From an uncultured Thermoplasmata archaeon (GTDB lineage Archaea > Thermoplasmatota > Thermoplasmata > UBA10834): a stretch of 64,000 nucleotides of DNA. A model generated the notes under the pieces. The model worked only from the letters and a program-made list of their open reading frames with translations, searched no databases and was not told where the DNA came from. Both the position numbers and the translations under genes were made by a program. Each line of letters begins with the position of its first letter. Position 1 is the first letter of the stretch. The DNA is taken from positions 64,001 to 128,000 of the forward strand of contig CAVRDX010000004.1 of assembly GCA_963719945.1 (NCBI GenBank). Reading direction: 5' to 3'. Positions 20,180 through 48,227 of the stretch are shown in pieces.

Positions 20180-22561
20180 ATGCAGAAAAAGGATGATACG
20201 GAAAAGAAACTCGTCTCATGCCCGAATTGTGGGCAGAAGACTTCCGTTTCCGAGGGCGGCTGCGAGCATTGTGCCGCCCCATTACCAGAGGATTCTCATT
20301 CGAGCGAGGGAGGCATCGATGAACTTAGGGCAGTTCCTGGAGTCGGCGAAGCAAAGGCCCATGTCCTTCTAAAAGCCGGTTACAAGAACGTCAAGGACCT
20401 GCAGAATGCAGACCAGAGCGAATTGGCCGGTGTCAGAGGAATCGGGGACAAATTGGCCGCGAAGATAATCAAAGGTGCTCAATCACTGGCGGGCCCTGAG
20501 GACAAAGAACTAGCCCATTGGCTGGCCGGAGAGGACGAAGGCCTATCCGCATGGATCTCGGGCGAGGAACATGAGGGGAAGGATGCAATGGTAGCGACCG
20601 AACCGGAAGCCTTCCAAGACGATTCGCTGGCGAAATGGCTCGCCGGTACTGAGGATAATCTCGATTCTTGGCTTGATGAGACCAAGATGAAGAGCGTCCC
20701 GGAACCGAAGAAGACCGTGTCCGAAGAGGTGATCGAGCACGGAGAGGAGATCACACAGCTCCGTGAAACATTGAGCCAGAAACTGAAACAGTTCGAGACC
20801 GACGGATTCAACCCGCAGGCAATCCTGGATGAATTAATCCGTACGAAGAGCGAAGTCGAGGCCGCGCGCGTCCACAGAAAGCATCTGGAAGAGGAGCTGG
20901 AGAACGTCAAACGCGGAAGCATCGCTGTCATCAAGTTCATCAAGAAACAACAGGGGTCGCCCGTGGATGCGGAGAACCTCGCAGACAAGCTCGCGTCCGA
21001 GATGGCCCAGAGGGAGGACCTCGAGCTGAAGGCCATGGAACTCGAGAAACAACTCACTGATCTCAGAGAAAAGACAGAGAAGGGTATCGCCGAGATGCCC
21101 GTGGATGCACAGTCTCTCAAGCGCCAGGAGATCGAGCTGTCGCAGAGGATGGCGCAGATCGAAGCCTATGAACTACAGCTCAAGGCCAAGGAGAACACGC
21201 TCCAGGAAGGCATAATATCCTATGGCAAAGGACCCTCGGACAGCGAGGAGCGCATCAGGGAATTGGAGGAGTATTCCGCCAAGGAGCGCGCACTCAACGA
21301 GCAGATACACGAATTGGAGGCGAAGCTCTCTCGGACAGAATTCGATATGAAGCATCTGGAAGAGAAGGCGAAGATATCAGAGAAGAAGGGATCCGCAATG
21401 GATCCAGAGCTGCTGAAGAGGTTGGAGCAGGCCCAGAGCCTCGAACGATCGTTCGCTCTGAGGGAACAAGAGCTGGAGAAGCTGAAGGAAGAGTTGAGGA
21501 TACGAGACGACGAGATGAAGAAACTCAAGGAACCTTTGGCCTACAAGGAGCAGGAGATGATCCGCCGAGAGGAGGACCTGATGTTCAGGGAGAGACTCCT
21601 CGAGGAGGAACTGAAGAGGGTCTCCCAGCAGAAGGCCGAACTCACGAACACTGACGAATTGACCATGAAGCAGCGCCTCGAAGAGTTGCAGGGGCAGATC
21701 ACCCAGAAGGAAGAGGAGATAAGGAACAAGGAGAAGTACTTCTCAGCGAAGGAGGACGAACTCCGTGCGAGGGAGCAGGGACTCATAACGGACGAGATCG
21801 AGAAGAGGGAGCAGGACAGGCTCATCGAACTCAAGCAGGAGAAGGTCAAGACGGGGACCTCCAGACTCGATGATTTGCTCCTTGGCGGTGCGCCGTTCGG
21901 GTCGAACATGCTGATCTATGGTCCGCCATTCACCGGCAAGGAAGTTCTCATGAATTCATTCATCGCGGAGGGGCTGAAGAAAGGCATCCCTGCGATATGG
22001 GTCATCACCGAGAAATCGCCCAAGGAGATCAGGAACGAGATGATGTTCGTGCTCTCAGGATACGAGGAATATGAGAGCAGAGGGCTCGTGAGATACGTGG
22101 ATACTTATTCCCGGAGCATGGGCGATGAGACCGAGGACCCATACACGGAATATGTCGAGGCACCCACGGATTATGAATCGATCCAGAAGGCGTTGGAGAC
22201 GGCGGCTAAGGCGTTCAAGAAGGATCATGAATACTACAGGATGGCTTTCAGATCGATCTCCACCCTCATAGCGTATCTGGACCCGAACACAGCATTCAGA
22301 TTCCTCAGTCCGGTCGCCGGCAGAAGGAAGAGGGACAAAGCGGTCTCGATGTACACTATAGAGAAGGGCGTCCACGGAGACCAGGAGATCCAGATGCTCG
22401 GATCGCTCATGGACGGCATGATCGAATTCAAACTCGAGAACCTTAACACTTTCCTATCGGTGAAGGGTATCTGCGAGGTTCAGTCTAGGGCTTTCATAAG
22501 ATACTCGTTCACCAAGTCCGGACTGAACATCGGATCGTTCTCACTGGACCACATAAGATGA
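20180..22561 (+). CDS. zinc ribbon-HhH-coiled coil-KaiC/RAD55-like ATPase multidomain protein
   Basis: CPNC/CEHC; tandem HhH (PGVG, RGIG); several hundred residues of coiled coil; TGTSRLDDLLLGG, GPPFTGKE, MDGMIEF. Confidence 0.82.
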   Translation: MQKKDDTEKKLVSCPNCGQKTSVSEGGCEHCAAPLPEDSHSSEGGIDELRAVPGVGEAKAHVLLKAGYKNVKDLQNADQSELAGVRGIGDKLAAKIIKGAQSLAGPEDKELAHWLAGEDEGLSAWISGEEHEGKDAMVATEPEAFQDDSLAKWLAGTEDNLDSWLDETKMKSVPEPKKTVSEEVIEHGEEITQLRETLSQKLKQFETDGFNPQAILDELIRTKSEVEAARVHRKHLEEELENVKRGSIAVIKFIKKQQGSPVDAENLADKLASEMAQREDLELKAMELEKQLTDLREKTEKGIAEMPVDAQSLKRQEIELSQRMAQIEAYELQLKAKENTLQEGIISYGKGPSDSEERIRELEEYSAKERALNEQIHELEAKLSRTEFDMKHLEEKAKISEKKGSAMDPELLKRLEQAQSLERSFALREQELEKLKEELRIRDDEMKKLKEPLAYKEQEMIRREEDLMFRERLLEEELKRVSQQKAELTNTDELTMKQRLEELQGQITQKEEEIRNKEKYFSAKEDELRAREQGLITDEIEKREQDRLIELKQEKVKTGTSRLDDLLLGGAPFGSNMLIYGPPFTGKEVLMNSFIAEGLKKGIPAIWVITEKSPKEIRNEMMFVLSGYEEYESRGLVRYVDTYSRSMGDETEDPYTEYVEAPTDYESIQKALETAAKAFKKDHEYYRMAFRSISTLIAYLDPNTAFRFLSPVAGRRKRDKAVSMYTIEKGVHGDQEIQMLGSLMDGMIEFKLENLNTFLSVKGICEVQSRAFIRYSFTKSGLNIGSFSLDHIR

Positions 22562-22575
22562 TGGAATCTGGTCTA

Positions 22576-23198: not shown

Positions 23199-23462
23199 TC
23201 AATGCTGGGAAAGGCAGTTAGGCGGAACTCGGTATTAAATCTTCGGTGATTCGCATCATGCGGAGCGCAAGAACGGATATCGACGGCTTCAATGAGGTTT
23301 TCGGGCGAGATTAATCAACGTCGACGGCTAGTGCGACCGACCGTATCCGCCCAACCTGGAGTGGAAAAATAAGGTGTATTCCAGACGATACCAGAAACGA
23401 AGGCTTTAAATATGTTCCAGACGCTGATTAGGTTGCTTCAGAAACCCCCTTTCGGTGGTAGG

Positions 23463-24455
23463 ATGGACTTGTCAGAAATTCAAGCTAGCTATTCTGGAAA
23501 CTCCGTTATTGACCGTATAAGGCGATCGCCGAGATGGAACAATGATGAGGGGGTTGCTTCGACAATCGGCACAATCATGTCGCTGCTTGTCTTCCTTACG
23601 TTCATGGGCATGTTTACCAACCAGTTCGTCCCTGTCTGGATGAGCGATAACGAAAGTACGCACATGGCAACTGTCATCCAGCAGATGATCACGCTCAAGT
23701 CCCAGATCGACGGGTTGGTCGCAGACTATTCGAACAGCCTTCTGGCCCCGACACCCATTTTCGTCCCGATAACTCTGCATGCTTCAGGCATACCGATATT
23801 CGCCGAACCTACTGCAGGAATATTACGATTCAGTCCTCAATCCACCAACGGTTACCCGTCGTTCAACGCGACATTCGCGGGAGATGAACAGACATTGAGC
23901 ACGGCTGATGACGGACACACTGGCGGATACGTCGACCTATATGCACCGAACAGGTACTTCATCGAGCAGCACCTGACCTATGATTGTGGTGCCCTGATAC
24001 TCAGCCAGCCGGATGGAGAATACATCATCGCGGGGCTTCAGTTCTCGGTCACGAATATCGTTACAGGCGCCGATACCAGCAGAGTTGTCAAATTGTCACA
24101 GGTCTCGATGCTGGGCCTGAACAAGACCATAGGCGGGACTGGCACGAAGGGGATATACGCGGATCTTCTCTATGCGAACACCAATGTATATGAAAGCACA
24201 GTAGGAGCTGACCTCACCCTCACTATAGTGAGCAAGCACGGAAACGCTTGGCTGACCTATTTCAACAAGGCGCTCAACAACTCGATGGCTGGCCTAACAT
24301 ACGGTGCAGACTTCGAAATGGGGCCTCTGACCCTGCATGACCAGATGGGTACTCAGTTCGATTACTACACATTGACAGTCACGATAAAGGATGTGAACGT
24401 CTTGGACCACACGCGCGCGACGGTCCAAGTGACACTGGGCGAGGTGGCCCCTTAG
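23463..24455 (+). CDS. large type IV pilin-like protein
   Basis: Class III-like signal NNDEG/VASTIGTIMSLLVFLTF…VPVW; first gene of the pilus locus. Confidence 0.75.
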   Translation: MDLSEIQASYSGNSVIDRIRRSPRWNNDEGVASTIGTIMSLLVFLTFMGMFTNQFVPVWMSDNESTHMATVIQQMITLKSQIDGLVADYSNSLLAPTPIFVPITLHASGIPIFAEPTAGILRFSPQSTNGYPSFNATFAGDEQTLSTADDGHTGGYVDLYAPNRYFIEQHLTYDCGALILSQPDGEYIIAGLQFSVTNIVTGADTSRVVKLSQVSMLGLNKTIGGTGTKGIYADLLYANTNVYESTVGADLTLTIVSKHGNAWLTYFNKALNNSMAGLTYGADFEMGPLTLHDQMGTQFDYYTLTVTIKDVNVLDHTRATVQVTLGEVAP

Positions 24456-24465
24456 AGGTGAGCTT

Positions 24466-26226
24466 TTGGCTGAAGCAGAGGCGAAGATTGAATATGACAT
24501 ACCCGTGAAAGCCCCCAAGCAGCCAATGGGTGCCCGCATCTGGCGCGGATACATCAACGCCGTAAGCAGACTCAAATCAGAGCCGATCAAAGTCAGATCT
24601 GCCAAGGGTGCTGCTGCTCGGAGGAAGCAGTGGAAGGACGGGAAGGGTTCACCATACACCGAGATCCCACCCATCACAGACCCAGATATCCAGGAGATGG
24701 CGTTCTATCCAGTGGTTGATCCGTTCAGCTATGTGAGAGTAACTTACAACGCAGTCACCAGTGATTACATATTGAGCGTGATCGAGCCAGTGCTCACCGA
24801 AGATGAAGAAGCGTTGATGAAGAAGATCAAGAACACCTTCGAGATGACCCTCGATTACGAGTGGGAGAAACTCGACCAGATGAACAAGAAGACCTATCTG
24901 CAGAGGAGTGTTGATAGCTACATCAGGTCGAGGGGGATCAGGCTCGAACCGATCTCGGAAGATAAGGTGAAGTACTTCATCACCAGGGATTTCGTCGGAT
25001 ATGGCCCCATAGATGCATTGATGAGCGACATCCATGTCGAGGACGTGTCTTGCGACGGCGTCGGCATCCCGCTGTTCCTCTTCCATAACAAATTCGAATC
25101 AATCAAAACCAATATCGTGTTCGAAGATGAGGACGACCTCAACTCATTCGTCATATCACTTGGCCAGAGATGTGGAAAGCAGCTCTCCGTCTCGAACCCA
25201 ATACTCGATGGTACGACACCGGAAGGGCACAGAGTCCAGGCAACTTATGCCAGAGAAGTGACCACGAGGGGTGCCTCATTCACAATCAGACGGTTCAAGG
25301 AGAAACCGTTCACGCCAGTCGAACTGATCAAGTACGGCACCGCGTCACCAGAGATAGTTGCGTATCTGTGGCTCAGTGTCGAACATGGAGAATCGGCCAT
25401 CATAGCCGGAGGCACAGCGAGTGGAAAGACGGCGACGCTCAACGCCATGTCGCTATTCATACCTCCTGGTGCCAAGGTCGTCACCATGGAGGATACTAGA
25501 GAGATCAACCTGCCTCATGAGAACTGGATACCTGGCACGACAAGATCTGGCTCCGGGGAGAGGGGACCTGACGGAAAGACCGCCGGGGAGATAGACATGT
25601 ACGACCTCGTCAGGGCGGCATTGAGACAGAGGCCGAACTACATCATCGTCGGAGAGGTGAGAGGAAAGGAAACCTACACCATGTTCCAGGCGATGGCGAC
25701 AGGTCACACGACCTTCTCGACCATGCACGCGGATTCCGTCAAAGGCATGGTCAACAGATTAGAGAACCCGCCGATCAACTGTCCCAGGATTCTGCTCACT
25801 GCCCTCAGGAATGTCATCATCCAGACACATGCAAGAGTCGGAATGGACATGGTCAGGAGAATCAAACAACTCATCGAGATCGTCGGTTTCGAACCAGAAA
25901 CGAACGAACTCATCAGCAACACGGTGTATGAGTGGGATCAGGCCACTGATAAGTTCATCTTCAAGGGTCACAGCTTCCTGTTCGACAAGATCATGGAGAT
26001 GAAGAACCTAACACATGAAGAGCTGCTGCAGGAATTCGAGCGGCGTGTTGATATCGTGAAATACATGGTGTCCAAGGACATGTCTAGCCATGTGGACATC
26101 TGGAACCTCATCAAATCATACTACAAGGATCCCAAGGCGGAGGCGGAAAGGGTTCGAAAGGACATGCGCCCAGCGGCCGCTCAGAGCGGTCTGAAGATGC
26201 CGACAGGAGGTGCTGAATCTGCCTGA
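24466..26226 (+). CDS. type IV pilus/archaellum-family assembly ATPase (FlaI/TadA-like) 1
   Basis: EDVSCDG, SFTIRRF, GGTASGKT, EDTRE, LRQRP…VGEVRG, TGH…TMHA. Confidence 0.92.
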   Translation: MAEAEAKIEYDIPVKAPKQPMGARIWRGYINAVSRLKSEPIKVRSAKGAAARRKQWKDGKGSPYTEIPPITDPDIQEMAFYPVVDPFSYVRVTYNAVTSDYILSVIEPVLTEDEEALMKKIKNTFEMTLDYEWEKLDQMNKKTYLQRSVDSYIRSRGIRLEPISEDKVKYFITRDFVGYGPIDALMSDIHVEDVSCDGVGIPLFLFHNKFESIKTNIVFEDEDDLNSFVISLGQRCGKQLSVSNPILDGTTPEGHRVQATYAREVTTRGASFTIRRFKEKPFTPVELIKYGTASPEIVAYLWLSVEHGESAIIAGGTASGKTATLNAMSLFIPPGAKVVTMEDTREINLPHENWIPGTTRSGSGERGPDGKTAGEIDMYDLVRAALRQRPNYIIVGEVRGKETYTMFQAMATGHTTFSTMHADSVKGMVNRLENPPINCPRILLTALRNVIIQTHARVGMDMVRRIKQLIEIVGFEPETNELISNTVYEWDQATDKFIFKGHSFLFDKIMEMKNLTHEELLQEFERRVDIVKYMVSKDMSSHVDIWNLIKSYYKDPKAEAERVRKDMRPAAAQSGLKMPTGGAESA

Positions 26227-27253
26227 AATCTCCGATGTCTTCATGAGAGTCGAAACCAAGAAGGGAGAGTACCTCAAAACGAAACTGACCCAGAGAGGGG
26301 AGGATATCGGGCCTCATGGAGTCCGATTGACCAAGGGTGCCGTCCCCGACTATGTCAGTTTGACCAATTATCAGGATTTCTCCTGGCGCATAATGGGCAA
26401 GTTCGCGAGCGATCGGATGACACCCGCCAATAACCAGGTCCTCGAAGAATCGCTCACCAAGGCCCATATGAAGATACGGGCCGAAGAGTACTATGCATAT
26501 GTACTCATGAGCACAGTCGTCGCGTTCATCATAGGAGTGGTCATAGCAGTGGTCGTCGGAATCATCCTCTTCGGGGTGATGGGCGTGTCATTGACACTCA
26601 GGATCATGATATCAGGTGCGGCGATCGGCCTGTTACCCGTTATGGCGTTCTTCATGCTTATGGGATCGCCTGGCGGAAAGGCAAAGTCCAGGGGCAGGGA
26701 CATCGACAAGAAGATCGCAGCTGCGATGAGCTTCATCTCTGCTATGGCATCAGCAGATGTCAACATTGATATCATATTCAAGGAACTTTCGAGGCAGACG
26801 ATCTACGGTGAGATCGCAGCTGAATCCTCGTGGATTACGCGTGATACGGAACTTCTCGGATTGGATATCTTGAGCGCCATCAAGAAAGCGGCCAAGAGGT
26901 CCCCATCGGCCAAGTTCCAGGAATTCCTGCAGGGAGTCATCACGACCTCCACATCCGGTGGGCAGCTCAAGCCGTACTTCCTGCTCAAGGCAGATGAATA
27001 CCAGAAAGAGAACAAGCTCGCCATGAAGTCCCAGATGGAGACACTGGGAATGCTCGCCGAATCGTTCGTCACAGTCGTCGTTGCTTTCCCTCTATTCCTT
27101 GTTCTCATCTTAGCGATCATGGCAATCGTAGGCGGAGGAGACTCGAGCATGATGATCACCCTCCTGTACCTTATCGTCATTGGAATGATCCCGATCTCGC
27201 AATTCGGATTCATATTTGTCATTTGGAACATGTCACAGGAAGGTGCGATGTAG
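26210..27253 (+). CDS. TadC/FlaJ-like membrane platform protein
   Basis: T2SSF-type YGEI…LGLD…SPS…F…SGG pattern plus TM helices. Confidence 0.88.
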   Translation: MLNLPEISDVFMRVETKKGEYLKTKLTQRGEDIGPHGVRLTKGAVPDYVSLTNYQDFSWRIMGKFASDRMTPANNQVLEESLTKAHMKIRAEEYYAYVLMSTVVAFIIGVVIAVVVGIILFGVMGVSLTLRIMISGAAIGLLPVMAFFMLMGSPGGKAKSRGRDIDKKIAAAMSFISAMASADVNIDIIFKELSRQTIYGEIAAESSWITRDTELLGLDILSAIKKAAKRSPSAKFQEFLQGVITTSTSGGQLKPYFLLKADEYQKENKLAMKSQMETLGMLAESFVTVVVAFPLFLVLILAIMAIVGGGDSSMMITLLYLIVIGMIPISQFGFIFVIWNMSQEGAM

Positions 27254-27254
27254 G

Positions 27255-28187
27255 ATGGCAGTGAAGAAGCTCAGCCAGGCAGAGCAGGAGAGGGCGATCA
27301 AGAAGATCCTGGCTACTGAGAAATCAGATAAGACCAAAACCATCCTGGTAGGCTCGATCGTCGCTGTGCTCATATGCGTGTTCGCAGCGATCATAGACAT
27401 GATAGGCAGCCTTTCGCTCCCATTCGACCCCATCGATTACATCATCTTTGGAATAATGGCATTCCTTGCCCCATACGGGTTCTACACATCAAGGAAGGAA
27501 AAGAACATCAGAGAGATCGAGACCAGACTGCCCGATTTCCTCAGAGATGTGGCGGAGGCAGGAAGATTCGGAATGACGTTGGCTGACTCGATTGTCGTCG
27601 CATCATCCGGCAGATACGGTCGACTGACCCCAGAGATCCAGAAGATGTCTGCACAGATAGAATGGGGGGTACCCGCATCTGAGGCCATCCGACTATTCTC
27701 GGAGAGGGTCAAGACGCCACTGGTCATAAGAATGACATCGATAATCAGGAAGGCCAACGACGCAGGTGGCAACGTCGCCGATGTCCTCACGATGGTTTCC
27801 CACGATGCCAAGGAATCCATCCTCACACAGGAGGAGCGGAATGTGACCATGTCGACCTATGTGATGGTCGTCTACATATCATTCTTCGTGTTCATCGCGA
27901 CCATATTGATCCTGGACCTGCAGTTCCTCCCTAAGATGGAGGAGGCGGGAACGACGGTGAACGATGCGGCTCAGGAGATGGGATTACAGGAGATTCCGGG
28001 AGTCAACATCAAGGTCGCCCTCATCGACGATATCTCATTCATATTCCTACTTGCGATAGTGGTGCATGCAGTTGGGGATGGGCTGCTAGCTGGTGTCATC
28101 CAGAAGGGGAGCATACCCATAGGAATGAGACACAGTTTCATCATGTTGCTTTCAGGATTCGTGTCCCTAAGGTTACTGTTTGCGTGA
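27255..28187 (+). CDS. TadB/C-like membrane platform protein
   Basis: LPDFLRDVAE…GMTL…YGRL…WG…GG pattern plus TM helices. Confidence 0.88.
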   Translation: MAVKKLSQAEQERAIKKILATEKSDKTKTILVGSIVAVLICVFAAIIDMIGSLSLPFDPIDYIIFGIMAFLAPYGFYTSRKEKNIREIETRLPDFLRDVAEAGRFGMTLADSIVVASSGRYGRLTPEIQKMSAQIEWGVPASEAIRLFSERVKTPLVIRMTSIIRKANDAGGNVADVLTMVSHDAKESILTQEERNVTMSTYVMVVYISFFVFIATILILDLQFLPKMEEAGTTVNDAAQEMGLQEIPGVNIKVALIDDISFIFLLAIVVHAVGDGLLAGVIQKGSIPIGMRHSFIMLLSGFVSLRLLFA

Positions 28188-29935
28188 TTGAGATGTCTGA
28201 AACAGAGCAGGCCAAGATTGAAATGGAACAACAGCCAAACGCGCCGGAAGCAGAGGCAACTCCGCCACCAGAGGAGGAGAAGGCGAAGAGCGGAGGCTTT
28301 CTGGCGGCGTACTATGGATTCCTGATGAAGATCAGGCCCAGGCCTATGAGGATCACAGTCATGAAGAACGAGATCCAGGTCGACACGAGTCAGATCACGG
28401 AGATACCAAAGCTGACCGAGTCGAATATAGATGAGGTCGAGATATCCCCGGTCAAGCAGAACTATTCATACGTCAGGATAAGGTACGACAACAAAGCCAA
28501 CGAATACACATATGAGGTAATCGAACCGAAGTTGCTGGGAGACGAGGCGGCTGTGGTCGCCCTCCTGAAAGAGACCCTCATAGCATCCGTCGAAAAGATG
28601 ACCGAGGAGGAACCTTCGGAGAAGGAGAAGTATCTGAGACGAATCATCGAGGAGCTGATGAACCTTCTCGGGATCTCACTGCACCCGATATCCAAAGAGA
28701 GGGTGATGTACTATCTTCTCAGAGATTTCCTCGGTTATGGTGTCATCGACGTGATGATGAATGAGCCCAATGTGGAGGATTGCTCGTGCGATGGGGTCAA
28801 CGTCCCGCTCTACATCTATCACAGGAAGTACGGTTCAATAAGGTCCAACCTCAGGTTCGAGAAGGAGGTGGAACTCGATGGTTTCGTGGTGTGGCTCGCC
28901 CAGAAGTGCGGCAAACACATCTCGGTCGCGAGTCCACTTCTGGACGCAACTATCCCGGACGGTTCTAGATTGCAGGCGACTCTGGGAAAGCATGTGACGA
29001 AGAGAGGTTCGTCATTCACCATCAGACGGTTCAAGGAGAACCCTTTCACCCCGCTTGACCTACTCAAGTTCAAGACGATGAGCACGGAGATGATGGCATA
29101 CCTCTGGATAGGCATAGAACACGGACAGTCGATGCTCGTGTGCGGAGGCACTGCGAGTGGAAAGACCACCACACTCAACGCAGTCCTCCTTTTCATACCC
29201 CCACAGATGAAGATCGTCTCGATCGAGGATACCAGGGAACTCAACCTTCCACATGAGAATTGGGTTCCGGGTCTGACCCGAGAAGGTTTCGGTGGGAAGA
29301 GCATGGTCACTGGGAAATCTTCCGGTGAGATCGACATGTTCGACTTGCTCACGGCCGCGATGAGGCAGAGACCTCAGTACCTGATGGTCGGTGAGGTCAG
29401 AGGTAAGGAAGCGTACGTCGTGTTCCAAGCCATGGCGACAGGTAAGACCTGCTATTCGACTTTCCACGCAGAGGATGTCCAGGCGATGGTGCACAGAATG
29501 GAAAACGACCCCATCAACCTGCCAAGGGCGCTGATCACAGCTCTCAACATCGTCATGCTGCAGGCTCAGGTCAAGGTCGGGACGAAGATGACCAGACGGG
29601 TCAAGTCATTGACGGAGATCGTCGGCATCGACCCTGAGACCGATGAGCTGATCACCAACTCAGTCTACACATGGAACCCAGCCGATGACACTTTCAACTA
29701 TAGCGGTCACAGCTACGTGTACGAGAAGGTCAGAATGGCCAGGAACTGGGCACCTCGAGAGATGGAAAGGGAGATCAAGAGGCGTGTCGACATTCTCGAG
29801 TACATGAAGAAGGTGAGCATCGACAACCACAGGAAGGTTGCCACAATCATATCTGCGTATTACAAGGATCCAGACAAGGTCATGAAGGAGGTCCGGGCGA
29901 AACTGGCAGAGACCGGACCACCTCAGCGAATCTGA
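28184..29935 (+). CDS. type IV pilus-family assembly ATPase 2
   Basis: GGTASGKT, EDTRE, MRQRP…VGEVRG; His box reads TGK…TFHA. Confidence 0.92.
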   Translation: MIEMSETEQAKIEMEQQPNAPEAEATPPPEEEKAKSGGFLAAYYGFLMKIRPRPMRITVMKNEIQVDTSQITEIPKLTESNIDEVEISPVKQNYSYVRIRYDNKANEYTYEVIEPKLLGDEAAVVALLKETLIASVEKMTEEEPSEKEKYLRRIIEELMNLLGISLHPISKERVMYYLLRDFLGYGVIDVMMNEPNVEDCSCDGVNVPLYIYHRKYGSIRSNLRFEKEVELDGFVVWLAQKCGKHISVASPLLDATIPDGSRLQATLGKHVTKRGSSFTIRRFKENPFTPLDLLKFKTMSTEMMAYLWIGIEHGQSMLVCGGTASGKTTTLNAVLLFIPPQMKIVSIEDTRELNLPHENWVPGLTREGFGGKSMVTGKSSGEIDMFDLLTAAMRQRPQYLMVGEVRGKEAYVVFQAMATGKTCYSTFHAEDVQAMVHRMENDPINLPRALITALNIVMLQAQVKVGTKMTRRVKSLTEIVGIDPETDELITNSVYTWNPADDTFNYSGHSYVYEKVRMARNWAPREMEREIKRRVDILEYMKKVSIDNHRKVATIISAYYKDPDKVMKEVRAKLAETGPPQRI

Positions 29936-30085: not shown

Positions 30086-33000
30086 CTACTGCTGATCCTC
30101 GCTGTTGTCGGATCCGTTGCCATTCTTATCCGAAGTCCCGGCTATGGGGGTCTTGATGATCTTCTTCGGGACCACTTTTCTGTCGATGGGCCTTCTGATG
30201 ACCATCTTCGGTGCGGCGACCTGGGAAGGACCCTGTTCCTGAGCCTTCTCGACCGGCGGGGCAAATTCGCGCGCAGACGATTCTGGCAACGCCTCGCCTG
30301 AGGACGGCGGGGTCGGCGGCTGTTCTCCCGGAGGCAGCTCCTTCTCGGCTCCGAAGACCGTTCCGCACTTGTGACATACGGTCGATTCCTTCGGGTTCAG
30401 TGTGCCACATACTGGGCATGGTATTGGCCCCTCCTTCCGCTTCTCCTCTTCCTTTGCGAGCCAATCTTCGAATGAGATATATGTCGGCTGAGTCACCCAC
30501 CACTCGTCGAACTTCTTGTCGCTGAACTTCTTGCCGAGTTCGGGCTTTGCCAACTCGCGGTACTTCGAGACCATCTCATCGTACTCGCCTCTCATCTTCT
30601 CGAGGTAGTCCTCCTCGCCGATTTCCTCGCCGACGAACTTCACACCGCAGTTGGAGCATTCGGTTGATTCTGCAGGCACCCATGCTCCGCATTCAGAGCA
30701 CTTCATCGTGCCTACTTCGAACTCGACTCCACACTTCGGACATCTCTTATTCGCAGCTGGGATGAAGGCACCGCATTCTCCGCACTCCACCAGTTTGCCG
30801 AGGCCACGGAAGTAGATATAGGCAGTGACTCCAAGAACGGAACCGACGATCACACCGATTATCGCGAGCCAGACCCACAACGCAATGCCGCGTCCCGCGA
30901 CTACGCCATCGACGGCAATCGTAGTCGCGAAGTCAGGCTGCTCCTCCTCTAACACTACTGGGACCAGCGTGTATTGACCGGTCTCGAGGTTAGCCAAGAG
31001 AGCCACTTGGAACGATGCCCTGCCTGAAGGGGATGTCGAAATCGCATCAGCGCGCGAGAGAACATCACCATCGGGACTCACGAGGTTCACGGACACGCCT
31101 GGCAGCCCAGATACAGCTATCTCGTCATTGATATTCTCTGGCTCAGTCGCACCGTAGTAGATATTCACGTGTACGAGAGCGCTTTCGCCCGCTTTGTACT
31201 CGCCCGTGTCCGAGTCCACTATCATTATTATGTGATATACGAGATCCACGATTTCGAAATCAATCGATGCTTCGTTGTTCGTCTCGTTCTTCTCATTCGA
31301 TTGGTTGTTGTCGTAGTCTACGAATACGAATATGGAATATGTCCCACTAACCGTCAGATTTATCGTATACTCCATTGAGACTTCTACCCACATCTGTGGG
31401 AGTATATGCTCCACCGAAATGCCAATCTCATATTCCAATGTCCCGAATACAATGGAGAATCTGATGCTGACATCGCCCGGGTTTGTCCCGCCAATGTTGT
31501 GGACGTTTGCCGTAATCGTGACCGTTCTCCCAAATTCGTGGGGATTCGAACCATCGTCCACTGAGATATCATCCGCATCGACTTTGAAGTCTGCACGGAC
31601 ATCAAGTACGGTAATCGTGGCAGTTTCGATGTTGTTTGTCAGATCCGTCTCAATCACTGTTTCAGATGGATTGGCTTCCATGGTGAAAGTGAACTCAGTG
31701 TCGTTCGTCACAAAGGGTGCGGAATATGCAAACTCAACCGCGAATTGAGATTCTTCATATAGAATCCCATACAGTGTCATGTTGAAAATTTCGCTCTCTG
31801 AATCGCTGTATTCCACGGTCAATGATACTACCGGGTTCGAGACAGGGGCCTCACCATTGTTGTACAGCACTGAACGAACATACAATATCTGACCACCAGG
31901 TACGCTTGACACGTCGGCAGGTGGGTCGCCGGCCATGAATCCTATCGCATCTAGCGATAGGTCAGCATAGCCCAAAACTCTGATCTCAACTGAGTCCTGG
32001 TTGTTGGCGAATGACAGCTCATCGAAATCCGGTGTTCCGCCGAGACCGCCGTTGACTACTACCCATATTGTGAAGATCCCGATGCTGTTCGGGATCCAAC
32101 CAACATCAACGGTTACCTGGCTGTTCGGTGTTAGAGTCGAAATCATAGTAGAATTCAGAAGGGTTGCCGTCGCCACATCTGTACCTAGCAAGAACTCAAC
32201 TAGAGCATCTTCTGCAATGGCATCACCGGTGTTCTCGATCACCGCGAAGATTGTGCATGAAGCATTGTACACGACATACGATGGCTCAGTCCAGATATAA
32301 CCAGTCATTACGCTGAGATCTGGGAGTATGACAGTGGACATCCTCAGCACTGCGAAGGTAGCATTCTCCGTCAGGGGCTCGGTGTATGGCTTGACACCGA
32401 TAGATATCGTCTCATCCGAGAAATGCAGGACTCCGTTACTCAAGTAAGTAGAGTTGATCTTGTAGTTGCCGATGAAGGTTGAGCCATCCGATGTCATTAT
32501 TGTTCCCAGGGAATTGATCCTTGCTATTCCAGATTCATTGCTGACTGCGCTCGACCAGTATGTATTGTTCACGAAGAACCATGCCGAGACGGTCGCTCCA
32601 GACAGCGCGTTGCTTCCGCCATCCAGAACAGTCACGTGAATCCATCTGTAGATCAATGCTTCTGCGTCTTCCGTTACTACTATTGATGGAACGCTGGAGT
32701 TCGTAAATTCTCCCAGTGCATGACCAGATAGTACTGGTGCCTGCAGAAGTGTGGAATCAACGACTACGATTCTGGCTGATGAATCCCATGAAGTAGTTAT
32801 CGTACCATCGAAGACCGTGTCTCTGAGAACCACGAGTGCATCATCCATCGCGACTATGTTGACACCGTTCAGAGTTGACCCTGTTACTTCGAGCGTCCCC
32901 TCACCCTTCACTATGAGGTCAATCGCGAGTTCGCTGTTGACCATAGAGTCCTCGATCACCAGGTTTGCTGTTCCATCTACATAGACGGTTCGCTCGTTCG

Positions 33001-34882: not shown

Positions 34883-34992
34883 AAGTTCACCCACCCAGAT
34901 GCTGGGTATTGCGAATCAAAGTAAGCAGTTCGGCTATATAAAAAGCTATTTGCCATATTTTCATGGCAAAGAAGGGTTCGAGGAGGTGCTGG

Positions 34993-36960: not shown

Positions 36961-39543
<2,583 letters not shown>

Positions 39544-39553
39544 GAGTGATCAC

Positions 39554-41906
<2,353 letters not shown>

Positions 41907-43131
41907 TTGCGGAGCGGAAGGAATCGAGCCAGACAAGTTGATCAGATTGTTCGAAAATGGGAGAGTTGTAATCCCATCCAACCCTAAACACAAGAACCTC
42001 CGGCCAAGAGCCATCGGTGAAGGGTTGACTGTCAAGGTCAACGCGAACATAGGCACCTCAAAGGACAGGATCAACCTGTCCGAGGAGCTGGAGAAGGTTA
42101 GAATTGCCCTACAATATGGTGCTGATGCGGTCATGGATCTCAGCACTGGAGGAGACCTTCACGAGATAAGGAAGAAGGTGATCGGCGAGTGCGACGCCCC
42201 AGTGGGGACCGTCCCCATCTACGAAGCAGTATGTAGGACATCGAAATCTGGTGGACCGATGTCGATGACCAGCGACGACCTTTTCAAAACCATCGAGAAG
42301 CAAGCTAAAGATGGTGTCGATTTCATGACCGTGCACTGTGGCATAACCAAAGAGACTGTGTCCACATTGAGAAGCCATAAAAGGCTGACAGGTGTCGTAT
42401 CCAGAGGAGGAGCGATCCTGGTCGCATGGATGCACGAGAATTGCAGGGAGAATCCCCTCTACGAGGAATACGATTACCTTCTAGAGATGGCCAGAGAACA
42501 TGGCTTCGCGCTGAGCCTGGGGGATGGCCTGAGACCGGGATCGACCGCCGATGCCACGGATGGACCGCAACTCCATGAACTGATCGTCCTCGGGAAACTC
42601 GTCGAGAGAGCACGAGCAGCTGGCGTCCAGGCCATGGTCGAAGGACCTGGACATGTGCCGCTGAACCAGATAGAGGCGAACGTGAAGGCGGAGAAGACCA
42701 TCTGCAAGGGGGCACCATTCTATGTCCTTGGCCCGATCGTTTGCGATGTGGCAGCAGGATATGACCATATCGCGGGAGCAATCGGAGGGGCTTTGGCTGC
42801 CTACCACGGTGCAGATTTCCTCTGTTATGTCACTCCATCGGAACACCTTTCACTGCCGACCGTCGACGATGTAAGAGAAGGGGTCATCGCGAGCAAGATA
42901 GCAGCTCATTCGGCCGATCTCGCGAGAGGTAGAGGCGGTGACAGGGACCAGAGAATGTCTCGCGCCAGAAAGGCTTTTGATTGGGACACCATGTTCGAAC
43001 TGTCGTTCAATCCCGAGAAGGCGAAGGCCTACAGGGACCGATGCAAGTCGAAGAGCCCAGATGTCTGTTCGATGTGCGGAGACCTCTGCGCAATGAGGAT
43101 GGTGGACAGACTCCTCGACGAATGACGGCCG

Positions 43132-44040
43132 TCAGAAATTTATCCCTATCGGCAATCGCATGAAGGAGCCGACGATGAGTGCCACTATTCCTGCAGCGAC
43201 GCCTGCGAGGATGGCGCACAGGGCTGCGGAACCCGTCGATATGTCGTTCGCTATTCCGATCGCCTTGCTCACGATACGAAGGAGCCATGCCAGACCAGCA
43301 AGGATCATGACCAGGAATATCGCACCGAACACCATGGCTTGTTGAATCTCGTCATCGGCCCAATTCTCGACTCCTGCGAGGTCCAGACCCACAAACCCGT
43401 AGTCGAAGATGGATAGAAGGATTATCGAAAGGACCACGAACCATGGATAGCAATGTGCGACCAGGGTCAAGGTCGATCCTTTGTCTCCCCGCCCGCCGAA
43501 GATCTCGTGGGACAGCAGCGCAGCCACGACTCCGAATATGAGGAACGATAACAGGGTGACGATCCATCCCACGACCCCCTGCAAAGCGATGCCCACTGCA
43601 TCCTTTGAAGTGTACCCGACCACTTCTGCCATATCGTGCGTGATGAACACGCTGAACATCGTGGAGATCACGCTGAACGCCAGGACTATCGCGATTGCAT
43701 GCCTCAGATCGGTGGACAGATACAGATTCATCAGGGACTTGGTCGGGCGGATCGATGTCAGGACCATGTTCCGAAGGTCGAACCTTGGAGCGTGTCTGGG
43801 TTGAATGTAGAGGCCAGGATAGTGACTCCTGGTCGTCTGACCACCCCCGAGTTCGATAACCTCGTCGGGACTGGACGGCGGCGCAATCCCAGCTGCGATC
43901 TCGCGGACAACAGGGCTGCCGCAGTTCGGGCAGACGAACGTTGCTTTCCCATCGCCCTGGACCTGCAAGTAGTCTGAGATGGAGGTGCCGCAGGCCGAAC
44001 ACTTGGAATCTGGCATGAACACGACGGATTTGCCCGACAT
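43132..44040 (-). CDS. Yip1-like membrane protein with N-terminal zinc ribbon
   Basis: CSAC…CPNC followed by about 5 TM segments with a FGGRG loop. Confidence 0.7.
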   Translation of the reverse strand: MSGKSVVFMPDSKCSACGTSISDYLQVQGDGKATFVCPNCGSPVVREIAAGIAPPSSPDEVIELGGGQTTRSHYPGLYIQPRHAPRFDLRNMVLTSIRPTKSLMNLYLSTDLRHAIAIVLAFSVISTMFSVFITHDMAEVVGYTSKDAVGIALQGVVGWIVTLLSFLIFGVVAALLSHEIFGGRGDKGSTLTLVAHCYPWFVVLSIILLSIFDYGFVGLDLAGVENWADDEIQQAMVFGAIFLVMILAGLAWLLRIVSKAIGIANDISTGSAALCAILAGVAAGIVALIVGSFMRLPIGINF

Positions 44041-44100
44041 CAAGAAGCCGATTGACTCGTTGGCATATTAGAGTTGTCACTCGGACAACGAGGATGGATA

Positions 44101-44204
44101 TGGAGCCACTGGAGGGTCTCGAACCCCCGGCCTGCAGTTTACGAAACTGCCGCTCTCTAGCGGCACCTGCATGGTCGCAGGCGCAACCGCTGAGCTACAG
44201 TGGC
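44101..44204 (-). tRNA. tRNA-Thr(CGT) with a 29-nt D-loop intron (44157-44185), CCA encoded
   Basis: Acceptor GCCACTG/CAGTGGC; anticodon arm GCAGT-TTCGTAA-ACTGC; perfect BHB around the intron. Confidence 0.93.
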
Positions 44205-44339
44205 AGACGGAATGTTGGGAAGATTGTCTCTGTAGTTAAGCCTTTTGACTTGGAAACAGCAGCATCGGTCAACACCAGCGCCTGGGGCAAGCAACAAGGG
44301 TTAATAGGTTTCGATAGTATTCACAGCACGGACCCAGAT

Positions 44340-46481
44340 ATGGTTAGCGATCTCCGAATTCCTGAAGGGATAATTGTCAGGACTGCCAAAGGAGGCCCTG
44401 ATTCGCTGAAGGGCATACTGTCCGACCTGAAACAGTATAGCTTCACTGGTTACCTGAAGGTCACGCTCGAGAAATCCGTGATGAACTCCACGGGTTACAT
44501 CGTAGTGGAATTGGGAGCGCCCGTCATGGCGATCTACGAGTTCGAGAAATCGAAACCCAGGGAGCTGCGGAGGATATACACCGGAGAGAAGTCACTGAGA
44601 TTCATACTCGAGGATTCGCAAGACAAGGGATCCAACATCGAACTCCACAGCCGTGTCCCCAAGGAGGAGTTCGAGCGTAGGTTCCCTGACGCCTATATCG
44701 CTGGAGGAGCCGCCCCCAAACCGACCACTAGGACCCCCCGGGACGAAGCGAAGGTCAAGGAAGAGGTGGAACTCGATCCGTATGTCGAGAAGATTGAGCA
44801 GTGGCGCAGGAAGGGGTACAAGGTAGATACGCTTGAGACGGCGAGGGAGCAGGGAGTCCAGGAGATCTCGAAGGAACTTACAGGTTTCGAGCGCGACACG
44901 AACAAGCTCAGGCAGTTCGAGACGATCCTGAACAACTTCCCGATACTGGGGCTCGAGCCGGAGATCGCGGAGATAAGGACCAAACTGAACGATCCCACTC
45001 GAATCGCTGAGATAGAATCGGATATCGAATTCCTGCAGGAGAAGATCCGCCGGAAGATACAGAAGAGGAAGGCGGAAGAGGATTCGATAAAGCAGGAGAT
45101 GGAACGGAAGAAGAGGGATGAGAAGGCGTCGGACGTGTACGACCTGATCCTCAAGTACCAGACGACGCCCGAGGGTGAGGAGGCCGTGGAAGCCGTGAAG
45201 TGCCCCATCTGCGGCGGAGAGCTGGAAGATGGACAGTGCAGCAAGTGCGAGAAGGAGCAGAAGTTCACCAAGACATTCCCGACAGAGATGAGGTTCGACA
45301 ATTTCGTGATAGGCCCTGGCTCGAAGTTCTCGGCAGCGACCGCAGTCGCTGTAGCTGAGAATCTAGGCAAGGCATACAATCCGCTCCTGATATTCGGTGC
45401 AACTGGCCTGGGAAAGACGCATCTTCTATCAGCCATCGGAAACCACATACTGAACAAGAACAGTGGATTGACCGCCCTATACGTGCCAGCCGACAAGCTG
45501 GTCGATGCCGTTGAGCACAGTACGACTCCTGACGCCATCAGGATGTTGAGGGAGGAACTGAAACGTGCCGAACTCCTGCTTGTCGACGACATGCAGTTCC
45601 TCGCCGCCAATGAACAAGCTCAGGGTGAGATGGTCCACATCATCGATTCGCTCATCGACTCTGGAAAGCAGGTCGTGCTCGCTAGTGACAGACTGCCTAC
45701 ACAGATTCCGGGCTTCAGCGACAGACTGAATGCCAGAATCCAGAAGGGGTTGACCGTCGATCTGCAGCCGCCGGACGAGAGCACCAGGATCAAGCTCGTC
45801 AGGGTGAAGGCGCATGAGAAGAAGTTGAAGCTCAGCGACGAGATAGTCAAGTACATCGCCGAAAAGGTCACCCAGAATGTTCGCGAGATAGAGAGCACTC
45901 TGAACAAGGTCGTTGCGTTCTCCACCATAATGAAGATGGAAATCGACATGACCCTCGTCTCGGACATACTCAAGCCGCTCGCTCCCGTGCAGGAGACCAG
46001 GAAGGAGATCATGAAGGAGGTCAATGTTCAACCTGGCCATTGCTACCTGATAGAGGAGGAGAAACCGACCTACAGCAATGTCTTGCTGGGGCGGATGATG
46101 GCCGAGAACTATAGAGGGCTCATAATAACGAGGATGAACCCAAAGAGAATAAGAGATGATTTCGAAAAGGACCCTCGAATACTCTGGCTTACCGACAAGG
46201 ATAGTTCGATGGAGAAGACCATCCCGCCATCCCTGGAGATGATAATCCACAAGATCCAGGAATTCATTTCAGAGGAGGGGAACGGCATGGTCGTCCTCGA
46301 TGGCATACAATATCTCATCAGCAGCACCAATTTCGATTCGGTGCTCAGGTTCCTGAGGAGCATAATCGATGAGATGTCAGAATCGAAATGCATATTTGCG
46401 GTATCGATTAGCCCTGAAACCATGAAGGAGCAGGAGATATCGATAATGGAGAGGGAGATGGAGGTCCTGAACCTGACCTGA
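44340..46481 (+). CDS. DUF2226/PATAN-like + coiled coil + zinc ribbon + DnaA-type AAA+ + DUF835 fusion protein
   Basis: FTGYLKV…GYIVV..G; CPIC/CSKC; FDNFVIG…YNPLLIFGATGLGKTHLL…LLLVDDMQFL…ASDR…NVRE; C-terminal GLIITRMNP…WLT…LDGIQYL…NF. The ORF-track start overlaps the tRNA; ATG 44340 is the likely start. Confidence 0.88.
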   Translation: MVSDLRIPEGIIVRTAKGGPDSLKGILSDLKQYSFTGYLKVTLEKSVMNSTGYIVVELGAPVMAIYEFEKSKPRELRRIYTGEKSLRFILEDSQDKGSNIELHSRVPKEEFERRFPDAYIAGGAAPKPTTRTPRDEAKVKEEVELDPYVEKIEQWRRKGYKVDTLETAREQGVQEISKELTGFERDTNKLRQFETILNNFPILGLEPEIAEIRTKLNDPTRIAEIESDIEFLQEKIRRKIQKRKAEEDSIKQEMERKKRDEKASDVYDLILKYQTTPEGEEAVEAVKCPICGGELEDGQCSKCEKEQKFTKTFPTEMRFDNFVIGPGSKFSAATAVAVAENLGKAYNPLLIFGATGLGKTHLLSAIGNHILNKNSGLTALYVPADKLVDAVEHSTTPDAIRMLREELKRAELLLVDDMQFLAANEQAQGEMVHIIDSLIDSGKQVVLASDRLPTQIPGFSDRLNARIQKGLTVDLQPPDESTRIKLVRVKAHEKKLKLSDEIVKYIAEKVTQNVREIESTLNKVVAFSTIMKMEIDMTLVSDILKPLAPVQETRKEIMKEVNVQPGHCYLIEEEKPTYSNVLLGRMMAENYRGLIITRMNPKRIRDDFEKDPRILWLTDKDSSMEKTIPPSLEMIIHKIQEFISEEGNGMVVLDGIQYLISSTNFDSVLRFLRSIIDEMSESKCIFAVSISPETMKEQEISIMEREMEVLNLT

Positions 46482-46496
46482 CCTCGTCGGTCAAGT

Positions 46497-48227
46497 TCAC
46501 ATGGTCTTCTTCGCCATCTCTTTGAATTCCCTCAACTCTTTGAGCGCCTGCGAATAGTTCTTCGATTTCGTCAGGTTGGTCACCGACTTCAATATCGTCA
46601 ACATAGGCGTTATGTTCACGTTCTTTATCTTCGCGTCCACTAGCAGGTGACGAGCGCTCTTGATCTCCTCGGTGAGACGCTCTGGGATGGCTGCATTGAG
46701 ACGCTCGTTCGTCTGCTTGATGAGCATCTCGGCCTTATCGAAGTCCCTGGAATCGAACGCTTTGTTGGCTTCCACGAAGGATGCGCGAGCCTCTCGTGTA
46801 TCGAGTATGAGCATCTCGCAATCCGCAAGCAATGATTTCAAAGAATTGAGCCTCTTCTTCGCTTCGTTGTATCTGCCCGTGATCGGAAGGAGTTCGTTCG
46901 AGACTTTATCAGAGTAGATGAACGCGGCCTCCGCATCCCCACTGGATTTGGCCTTCTCCATCTCGCTTATGTAGGTCATCGATCGGGATACTTCGCCACC
47001 GAGCTCCTTAGCCACTTGGACCTCTTCCCTCAGCTGGTCGAGGTCATCTGTAAGCCTGGCATCTATTGTGTCCATGAGGATCGCGCGAGCCGTGTTCACG
47101 AGCTCAAGCGCTTTCTCTAGCTGCCTATCTCGCCCAGCTGCGGCTGCGTCATCGATGAGCTGCTTGCTCTCAGATATCTCAATCTCCTTCTGCATGGCAA
47201 GAGACAGGAGCGGTTTCATCTCGGCCACCATCCTCGCGAGCTCCTTCCCCTTGTCCTTCGAATCTGCCCTCATGGGGGTGATCTTCGGGGCTGGGGCCGC
47301 CTTGGTTATCTCCGGTTCAGGTATCCTTGGCCTAGGCTCTTCCTTTAGATGACGGAATGGTTCTGCCTCGACGGGCTCTTGCTTCGATTGAGGTTCTGGT
47401 TCCGTTACAGGTTCGGGTTCCGCCTCATCTTTGGCCTCGTCCTTCTTGCGCTTCTTCAGCCAGCCGAATGGTGAACGGCCCTTCTTCTCCTTGGGGGCCT
47501 TCTCTGGCTCTTCAACCTCATCAGCAGATGGTTCCTCTGCCTCCTCGGGTTCGACCTCGACCTCCGGCTTCATGGCCGGGACTTCTCTGACAGTCGGGAC
47601 TTCGGCGACTGGAGGCTCGATCTCTGGCTGAGTCGACGCTTGCTCAGTCGCCTCCTCCTCGGACTCGACGAACATGGCGCCACAACCGGGGCAGGTTTTG
47701 GCATCGACATTGACAAGCGTGTTACATGCAGGGCACTGGAATACTTCTGTGCCTTCGTCCGAGAAGATGACACCGCAACTCGAACAGGAGGATGCGGTCA
47801 TGCTCACCTTTGCACCGCACTCAGGACATGAGAATTGGTCTTCTTGGACGGTTTCGACCATCGGTATCTCGGATGTAGTCTCATCCTCGACAGGTGCCGA
47901 TTCCTCTGTGTCTGGCCTGACATCAGATGTGGATCGCGAGAACAGGGAAGCGGCGGTCGCAGCGGATTCATCCGAGACTTCTTCCTTCGGAGTCTCGGCC
48001 ACCTTGGGCTCACCGCGAGGGGGCGATATGACTTCGCGAACAATCGCATCGATCGATTTCTTTGGAGCCGGAGCGCTAGGCGTAGGCTGAACAGTCTGCT
48101 CAACAGGCTCATCGACTTCCATATCGAATATGGACAAATCTGTCCCACAGAACCCGCACTTCTTCGATCCGGGCTGGAGTGGAGAATCGCAGATGGGGCA
48201 AAGTTTGTCCCCGCTAGAACTTGGCAA
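46497..48227 (-). CDS. multi-zinc-ribbon protein with Pro/Glu linker and C-terminal helical repeats
   Basis: Three double-CxxC ribbons; about four helical repeats of roughly 66 aa. Confidence 0.8.
   Translation of the reverse strand: MPSSSGDKLCPICDSPLQPGSKKCGFCGTDLSIFDMEVDEPVEQTVQPTPSAPAPKKSIDAIVREVISPPRGEPKVAETPKEEVSDESAATAASLFSRSTSDVRPDTEESAPVEDETTSEIPMVETVQEDQFSCPECGAKVSMTASSCSSCGVIFSDEGTEVFQCPACNTLVNVDAKTCPGCGAMFVESEEEATEQASTQPEIEPPVAEVPTVREVPAMKPEVEVEPEEAEEPSADEVEEPEKAPKEKKGRSPFGWLKKRKKDEAKDEAEPEPVTEPEPQSKQEPVEAEPFRHLKEEPRPRIPEPEITKAAPAPKITPMRADSKDKGKELARMVAEMKPLLSLAMQKEIEISESKQLIDDAAAAGRDRQLEKALELVNTARAILMDTIDARLTDDLDQLREEVQVAKELGGEVSRSMTYISEMEKAKSSGDAEAAFIYSDKVSNELLPITGRYNEAKKRLNSLKSLLADCEMLILDTREARASFVEANKAFDSRDFDKAEMLIKQTNERLNAAIPERLTEEIKSARHLLVDAKIKNVNITPMLTILKSVTNLTKSKNYSQALKELREFKEMAKKTM

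Follow-up and report, generated by a model that had tools for sequence, protein, structure and literature searches.

The window analysed here is a 64,000-nucleotide stretch of DNA from an uncultured Thermoplasmata archaeon, and the locus of interest spans its positions 20,180 to 48,227. It holds a type IV pilus operon, a giant surface protein (S), a coiled-coil protein (C), a KaiC-like ATPase (K), a fusion protein with a DnaA-type ATPase core (D) and a multi-ribbon protein (Z), interspersed with gyrase and other genes. Gene order in distant relatives indicates that the pilus, S, C, K, Z and D are a real conserved gene cluster in many families of the class. Throughout, the letters H, S, C, K, D and Z, and the name pil347, denote the genes with the coordinates below. 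Domains were assigned from an open reading frame (ORF) listing and from Pfam and NCBIfam scans of the window proteins.

20180..22561, plus strand: H, 793 amino acids, with an N-terminal zinc ribbon, tandem helix-hairpin-helix motifs, a coiled coil of ~350 amino acids and a C-terminal KaiC-like domain (Pfam HHH_5, KaiC/DUF7504)
Between H and the pilus operon in window order: tRNA-Phe (ARAGORN)
23412..24455, plus strand: pil347, gene 1 of the pilus operon, a pilin-like candidate with an N-terminal hydrophobic segment at residues 47-65
24466..26226, plus strand: PilB/VirB11-type secretion ATPase 1, 586 amino acids (PF00437 T2SSE, 115.8 bits)
26210..28187, plus strand: two TadC/PilC-like platform proteins of 347 and 323 amino acids (PF00482 T2SSF in both), with three hydrophobic segments each
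28184..29935, plus strand: PilB-type secretion ATPase 2, 583 amino acids, with a PilB3_C end (PF00437, 112.3 bits; PF23989)
30086..34894, minus strand: S, a 1602-amino-acid single-pass surface protein with a CARDB and MG2-like ectodomain, a transmembrane helix at 1328-1346 and a cytoplasmic tail
34993..36003, minus strand: C, 336 amino acids, with a coiled coil of ~200 amino acids, then two ribbons and a C-terminal KKIVKKK tail (PF13248/PF12773)
36120..36833, minus strand: K, a 237-amino-acid single-domain KaiC-like ATPase (PF06745, 117.7 bits)
36961..41491, minus strand: gyrA and gyrB, ordinary gyrase genes (Pfam)
41860..44043: thiC (plus strand) and a zinc-ribbon/Yip1 membrane protein (minus strand), outside the conserved cluster (Pfam)
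44340..46481, plus strand: D, a 713-amino-acid fusion of a DUF2226-like N-domain, a helical linker, a zinc ribbon, DnaA domain III with lid, and DUF835 (PF00308, PF05763)
46497..48227, minus strand: Z, 576 amino acids, with four ribbons, long acidic/Pro-rich linkers and a C-terminal array of four helical repeats (Pfam, AlphaFold)

Domain content of the cluster proteins

Pfam scans bore out the pilus locus that an earlier note on this DNA had read from the sequence. One operon encodes two T2SSE ATPases, two T2SSF platform proteins and, ahead of them, a membrane protein; it has the PilB/VirB11-type ATPase and TadC/PilC-type platform of an archaeal type IV pilus (two PF00437 and two PF00482 matches). 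The upstream gene, pil347, gave no Pfam or NCBIfam match and hence no match to a pilin family; its hydrophobic segment is preceded by EG/VAS. It heads the operon at 32-36% identity in f15, f21, f23, f25 and f29, where f1, f2 and so on are our labels for families of the class and f1 is the window's own. H, upstream of the operon, combines tandem helix-hairpin-helix motifs of the RadA/ComEA type with a KaiC-like domain (PF06745, residues 556-755, 64.6 bits) that has the deviant P-loop GPPFTGKE. Together with K and the DUF835 domain of D, it makes up the three KaiC-fold proteins listed in the earlier note. The four long coiled-coil or helical proteins listed there are likewise present, H and C by weak SMC/RNase-Y-type matches and D and Z in AlphaFold models.

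K aligned to PF06745 over model positions 5-227 of 231, well above the cut-off of 26.6 bits. Its Walker A sequence is GPPGSMKT, with Met in place of the second Gly, and thus departs from the canonical GxxxxGK[ST]. This P-loop, GPPGSMK[TS], is found in 29 of 30 orthologues, and the remaining one has Leu. The TLEE catalytic glutamates, LDS and LDSLGALYSLM are invariant across 30 sequences, Walker B reads IFVLDS, and K is strongly constrained. It has a single domain, not two in tandem, and scores below the cut-offs of the circadian KaiC models (44.2 bits against 546 for TIGR02655; 88.2 against 408 for NF006799). The nearest solved relatives are KaiC and the single-domain proteins PH0186, PH0284 and SSO2452.

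The DnaA-type character of D is clear from PF00308 (163.8 bits, cut-off 23), and its C-terminus matched DUF835 (PF05763, 99.1 bits, cut-off 33.1). Walker A, Walker B, sensor motifs I and II and the box VII Arg of the AAA+ module are invariant in eight orthologues that are 30-69% identical to the window protein. D aligned with residues 113-369 of Bacillus subtilis DnaA (PDB 8btg) at an E-value of 1.2e-57 and is 36-41% identical to bacterial dnaA genes; its scores lie under the cut-offs of the DnaA model TIGR00362 (270 bits, 343.9) and the Hda model TIGR03420 (103.9, 194.8). A Pfam scan at E<=0.01 detected no DnaA domain I or IV, the two ends of D being a DUF2226-like domain and DUF835. The DUF835 part has a KaiC-like fold with no P-loop (no GK[ST] in the aligned part). 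The N-domain assignment is a lead only, with Atlas scores of 0.85 to DUF2226 and 0.84 to PatA_N and a Pfam DUF2226 E-value of 0.02, below the cut-off. In the AlphaFold model, confident domains are joined by low-confidence linkers.

D is the sole DnaA-type match in the source genome. In public records, automatic annotation has named its family 'DnaA/Hda family protein' or 'chromosomal replication initiator protein DnaA'. Scanning genome contigs with a pattern from the D alignment returned mostly bacterial dnaA matches, the archaeal loci numbering only six. Elsewhere in the phylum, a few families have the D-type fusion and other DnaA-AAA+ architectures. DnaA-type AAA+ modules were also noted in proteins of 430-1500 amino acids from other Thermoplasmatota classes (for example in genomes G231, G235, G239 and G189), with five matches in G231. 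The open frame 5' of the D start, at 44052-44339, is non-coding for D; its translation is 68% identical over 34 amino acids in the distant genome G120, a pattern as expected of a structured RNA gene, although ARAGORN called no tRNA in it.

The C-terminal 257 amino acids of Z were modelled with a predicted local distance difference test score of 91.6 as four repeats of a long and a short helix. Foldseek found nothing in the PDB at E<=0.001 for this domain, only designed helical repeats, and an Atlas feature search returned only unnamed Thermoplasmatota clusters, together with EzrA at 0.80 as a weak lead.

S has the features of the receptor-like surface protein proposed previously. An N-terminal hydrophobic segment and CARDB domains precede the transmembrane helix, and the tail carries four ribbons of C2-C10-C2-C spacing and a KKIIK motif. 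Across families the tail is 39-56% identical, as compared to 24-31% for the ectodomain. The motif KK[IV][IVLM]K[KRT][PK] occurs in exactly 2 of the 1882 crude ORFs called in the 1.78-Mb source genome (G000, the base for all within-genome counts), near the C-termini of S and C, and related basic motifs are kept in the orthologues. CxxC...CxxC ribbons are present in all six proteins for which they had been claimed. There is one in H, four in S, two in C, four in Z, one with a long spacer in the Yip1 protein (43132) and one of C2-C8-C2-C spacing in D. The strict form, C-x2-C-x3-[VILA]-x3-[AS]-x2-C-x2-CG, a version of the pattern noted earlier as frequent among them, holds for S, C and Z and not for the other three. 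The same three proteins pass the threshold of PF12773 (DZR) or PF13248, with DZR scores of 33.3, 42.7 and 37.8 bits for S, C and Z, respectively; the ribbons of H, D and the Yip1 protein score under the threshold.

gyrB, gyrA, K, C and S do form a co-directional run on the minus strand, as had been claimed. It is probably three units, gyrBA, K-C and S, because a T-run lies 3' of the gyrA stop, TATA-like boxes precede K and S, and none was seen in the GC-rich K-C spacer. The box upstream of K is TTTATTAG (~36901-36894), and GGAGG lies 8 nucleotides before the K start. Between C and S (34969-34932, minus strand), a perfect 7-bp hairpin, TTGCCAT...ATGGCAA, is directly followed by the TATA-like TTTTTATATA (~34944-34935); the hairpin is possibly a terminator abutting the S promoter.

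Several further loci of the source genome and the window were recorded as separate observations. The closest K paralogue in the genome (C1:639684) is 30% identical to K, has the P-loop GTPGTMKS with the same Met, and is separated by ~3 kb from genes for two multi-ribbon proteins, of 281 amino acids (5 ribbons) and 1164 amino acids (3 ribbons), a possible paralogous cassette (G000:C1:632050-640409). A KaiC with a canonical P-loop adjoins a 314-amino-acid three-ribbon protein (G000:C1:486109-487880), and a 1619-amino-acid DUF835 protein adjoins a 398-amino-acid two-ribbon helical protein (G000:C1:521119-527244). Just beyond the window, at G000:C4:128441-130471, are three or four adjacent KaiC-family genes, two of them with no recognisable P-loop. 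Within the window and outside the finding, an HdrA-like flavoprotein fused to an MvhD-like domain is encoded at 17450-19879 (minus strand), with no hdrBC or mvh genes adjoining in the stretch examined, and ARAGORN called a 97-nucleotide tRNA at 903-999 with a four-base 'cata' anticodon, which may contain an intron.

Gene order and phyletic spread

Class-wide counts refer to a sample of 141 genomes of the class, in which the coordinates of D, K and pilus ATPase 2 were compared by hand; the tallies of pilus ATPase 2 and H take in the unpublished genome G116 (f11), which no other claim uses. In the window's own family, six genomes from four genera are collinear with the window from its position ~12 kb to ~62 kb, housekeeping genes included; in one genome the collinearity breaks off at the surface gene. 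As the housekeeping neighbours share this collinearity, it says nothing on function, and family-level synteny was rejected as evidence.

Distant families are more telling. A contiguous ten-gene array of ~17 kb was found in f21, f15, f25 and f23, and partly in f29. It runs pil347, ATPase 1, TadC, TadC and ATPase 2 on one strand and S, C and K on the opposite one, with Z divergent from K and D convergent on Z. In f15, f21, f23 and f25 the array contains no gyrase, Yip1 gene or H, and thiC does no more than flank it (G051). In f15, f9 and f3, D, Z, K and C stand side by side without gyrase, and further loci are alike, one of them with S after C. The ten genes stay together in families whose flanking genes are all different and in which the block has been inverted or rearranged. 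The distance from K to the pilus ATPase is 5.6-7.4 kb in f1, f2, f15, f21, f23, f25 and f29. In nearly all relatives examined the gene after K is C, in seven families K has Z as its divergent neighbour, and of the more than 25 D loci examined only 4 have no Z next to D.

In the window's family, a block of gyrB-gyrA, thiC and the Yip1 gene separates K from D/Z, which are inverted as a pair. Only f1, f2, f26 and f8 have gyrBA between K and D, thiC flanks D in some families, and the Yip1 ribbon gene was seen only in f1 genomes. Judged by gene order, gyrBA, thiC and the Yip1 gene appear to be passengers, gyrase sitting between K and the D/Z pair. The earlier note had envisaged a single signalling system whose shared ribbons connect surface sensing and the pilus with DNA topology and replication; gyrase and the DnaA-type D would be the link. 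We consider this decidedly improbable. The K-gyrA-gyrB adjacency does recur in f1, f2, f8 and f26, but f15, f21, f23 and f25 have no gyrase in the cluster and f3 and f9 none in their directly adjacent K/D loci; in the window, gyrA is followed by a T-run and K is preceded by a TATA-like box of its own. Likewise, the AAA+ core of D is genuinely of DnaA type and H has helix-hairpin-helix motifs, yet D gave no Pfam match to DnaA domain I or IV, and the ribbons are a generic module genome-wide (see below). What stands of the claim is a conserved neighbourhood of surface, pilus and KaiC genes; its topology and replication part is unsupported, and the gyrase adjacency here is not to be read as a link to DNA topology.

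Gene neighbourhood and co-occurrence, the comparisons proposed in the earlier note, both speak for the cluster. It is syntenic in distant families, and the two ATPase-type proteins K and D occur together. D is present in 81/141 genomes and K in 82/141 (50-99% identity), each as a single copy. Both were found in 77 genomes and neither in 55; 9 are discordant, 4 of them with only D and 5 with only K. The latter five are genomes of f4 and f26, in which D falls out only because of the cut-off applied. In G120 (f26; L123 9699-10694) and in a further f4 genome, G029 (C166:1227-2540), D has a short form that consists of the N-domain and DUF835 and has no coiled coil, ribbon or DnaA AAA+ module. An opposite truncation was noted in f16, where D is ~560-625 amino acids long and has no N-domain. 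The distance from K to D is 1.6-2.4 kb in 17 genomes of f3, f9, f15, f21, f23, f24 and f25, 6.6-7.5 kb in f1 and f2, and 10-14 kb in f8.

Pilus ATPase 2 gave a match at E<=1e-150 in 112/141 genomes, nearly all with two matches, the second ~50% identical. H is present in 113/141 and has the phyletic range of the pilus, not that of K and D. It adjoins the pilus in f1, f2, f22 and f26, lies near it in f7 and f8, and is elsewhere in f15, f21, f18 and others; neither pilus nor H was found in f6, and f19 had only H, in 1/10 genomes. Since the range of pilus and H includes families with no K and D, the two are the wider, older layer, to which S-C-K with Z-D is an added one.

The tracking of H with the pilus also bears on a different function, a DNA-uptake or DNA-exchange pilus in which nucleic acid would be handled at the membrane by H, the ribbon proteins and the DnaA-type ATPase. 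In other organisms, taking up or exchanging DNA is a role of type IV pili, H carries tandem RadA/ComEA-type helix-hairpin-helix motifs, and ribbons and basic tails can bind nucleic acid. We nevertheless hold this explanation improbable, as Pfam scans of the window proteins revealed no nuclease, translocase or Ced/Com-type genes in the cluster and no DnaA DNA-binding domain in D, and H lies outside the cluster in most families.

Weighing the readings

The reading that we favour overall, with a probability of about 0.55, is that the window carries a lineage-specific split version of a conserved cell-surface cluster that works as proposed in the next section. A number of observations weigh against it, and they are given here together with the alternatives that draw on them.

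K/C and D/Z are far apart or on different contigs in f16, f18 (630 kb in G057), f22 and f28. Among such split loci the K-C pair is kept in f18, f22, f4 and one f16 genome, S is sometimes retained, and the D-Z pair is kept in f18, f22 and f29; no Z was detected beside D in the f16 or f28 neighbourhoods. This pattern feeds the main rival, in which two independent systems were neighbours in the ancestor and their adjacency is historical, the pilus/adhesin with K-C being one and D-Z an ATP switch for another process. The pairs separate cleanly in the four families named, each mostly intact, the short D of f26 and probably f4 has no AAA+ module, and DnaA-type AAA+ modules stand in other architectures elsewhere in the phylum. 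Independent systems are, however, hard to square with the 77 genomes that have both K and D against 9 discordant ones, five of which have no D only at the cut-off used, or with K and Z being divergent neighbours in seven families. Moreover, because DUF835 is itself a KaiC-derived domain, K is the obvious partner of D. On balance we regard the two-system explanation as unlikely.

Further points on this side concern spread and function. The pilus and H are present in families that have no K and D (f7, f10, f11 and f20), so the pilus works without K and D. The relatives are not independent, and one or two events of gain or loss in the class could account for the K-D co-occurrence. The Met in the K P-loop may impair nucleotide handling. 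Finally, the TATA-like boxes, T-run and other promoter and terminator elements of this archaeal host were called by eye from the spacers.

Statistics on the ribbons within the genome belong here as well. A generic CxxC...CxxC ribbon occurs in 103 of the 1882 ORFs, and the stretch is the genome maximum per 19 consecutive genes, with 6 ribbon genes (7 with the iron-sulfur protein HdrA). Shuffled gene orders reached at least 6 in 13.6% of trials, an enrichment that is weak within one genome; under a tighter ribbon definition the observed 5 was reached in ~10%. The local enrichment over the whole genome that the earlier note proposed to test is weak: this is the densest stretch, but shuffles match it about 1 time in 10. 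Genome-wide there are 15 matches to PF06745, 14 to DUF835 and 67 to PF12773, 5 of the last in this stretch, and the 81 copies of the C2-C10-C2-C ribbon are spread over 48 proteins. Compared with the ribbons of random multi-ribbon proteins, those of S, C and Z do not resemble one another significantly more closely (P=0.13), and a cluster-specific ribbon subtype was rejected. A ribbon gene is the immediate neighbour of 5 of the 29 KaiC/DUF835 genes, three of these being here (P=0.07), which leaves the ribbon as a general KaiC partner not established. Because the density, adjacency and likeness statistics are weak, the within-genome case for the cluster is weak, and the ribbon is a generic, promiscuous module in this genome; the suggestion that it acts as a locus-specific interaction module is not upheld.

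Taken at their strongest, these figures would mean that there is no system at all, only a chance run of common domain types in a ribbon- and KaiC-rich genome, kept by general collinearity. Shuffles do reach the observed ribbon density in 10-14% of trials, and within the family a whole 50-kb stretch is collinear, housekeeping genes and all. A chance run is nonetheless very improbable, contradicted as it is by ten genes kept together where the flanking genes all differ and the block is inverted or rearranged.

Returning to the conserved cell-surface cluster, only synteny supports its link to pilus and surface. A functional link between surface, pilus and KaiC is reasonable because of the conserved neighbourhood and the near-perfect co-occurrence of K and D, and it fits PMC4858521, in which KaiC-family ATPases are reported to associate with pilus loci of this type in archaea.

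Proposed working and comparison with known systems

In the model that we propose, S would span the membrane once and anchor a cytoplasmic scaffold made of its own ribbon tail and the coiled-coil C. The S tail and a dimeric C may dock on one common partner or on the membrane, since DZR ribbons and a basic KK[IV][IVLM]K end motif are common to both. K, probably an oligomer of KaiC type whose deviant P-loop is conserved, would be seated on the S/C scaffold and, on the analogy of ArlH and ArlI, could modulate one or other of the pilus ATPases. D is envisaged as a switch that oligomerises in an ATP-dependent way by means of its DnaA-type AAA+ core; coupling to K would come from its inactive, KaiC-like DUF835, and Z would serve D as an adaptor. 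Put together, this would be an undescribed envelope-to-cytoplasm apparatus, with a giant adhesin-like S wired via ribbon/coiled-coil scaffolds and the deviant K to a two-motor pilus, and with a domesticated DnaA core as assembly switch. We offer it tentatively, at clearly less than even odds.

Should this apparatus be real, it would represent a new use of the DnaA module outside replication, D pointing to the ATPase core of a bacterial replication initiator reused in an archaeal non-replicative setting. To our knowledge, few partners of archaeal KaiC-like ATPases have been described. The cluster offers defined, widely conserved candidate partners beside a pilus machine in abundant uncultured archaea and, if the contacts are real, a testable model for how archaea couple surface structures to cytoplasmic ATPases. 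Such ATPases have been proposed as signalling hubs (Makarova 2017, as cited in PMC5847659 and PMC6393860).

Bacterial DnaA (B. subtilis 8btg, Thermotoga maritima 2z4r, Aquifex aeolicus 1l8q/2hcb) and Hda resemble D in that domain III and the lid align end to end with it, with all nucleotide motifs. Unlike bacterial DnaA, D shows neither domain I nor the DnaA-box-binding domain IV in Pfam scans, scores below the family cut-off, is flanked by a DUF2226-like domain, a ribbon and DUF835, and comes from an archaeal host. DUF835 is described as an inactivated KaiC (iKaiC) output domain of archaeal signalling proteins (Galperin et al. 2018, PMC5847659), and D is like such proteins in its C-terminal DUF835 with no P-loop. 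The fusions named in that paper are REC-DUF835 and REC-PAS-DUF835, and a DnaA-AAA+ fusion is not among them. No co-mention of DUF835 and DnaA was found in the literature searched, nor was the S-C-K trio, the D-Z pair or their union with a two-ATPase pilus.

The archaellum protein ArlH with its ArlX or ArlCDE scaffold is another parallel, one of possible working. There too a KaiC-like protein of ~230 amino acids lies near a PilB-family motor ATPase and a coiled-coil scaffold protein. K differs from ArlH in its Met P-loop and in its score of 26.6 bits against the ArlH/FlaH model NF052589 (cut-off 215), C has ribbons and no membrane anchor, and the locus has no archaellin genes.

The closest published setting is that of archaeal type IV pilus loci, with which KaiC-family ATPases associate; two tadC genes are common in euryarchaeal clade 2, and double zinc-ribbon and coiled-coil proteins are cytoplasmic pilus-associated proteins in other lineages (Makarova, Koonin and Albers 2016, PMC4858521). 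The KaiC-pilus association is thus already published, and the DnaA-AAA+/DUF835 member was not found in the literature searched. Like the clade 2 loci set out there, the present one has a PilB/VirB11-type ATPase, two tadC-like genes and a KaiC-family ATPase nearby; it differs in that its pilus ATPases are two paralogues and in its fixed trio of K, C and the giant, ribbon-tailed S, and D with its ribbon partner Z.

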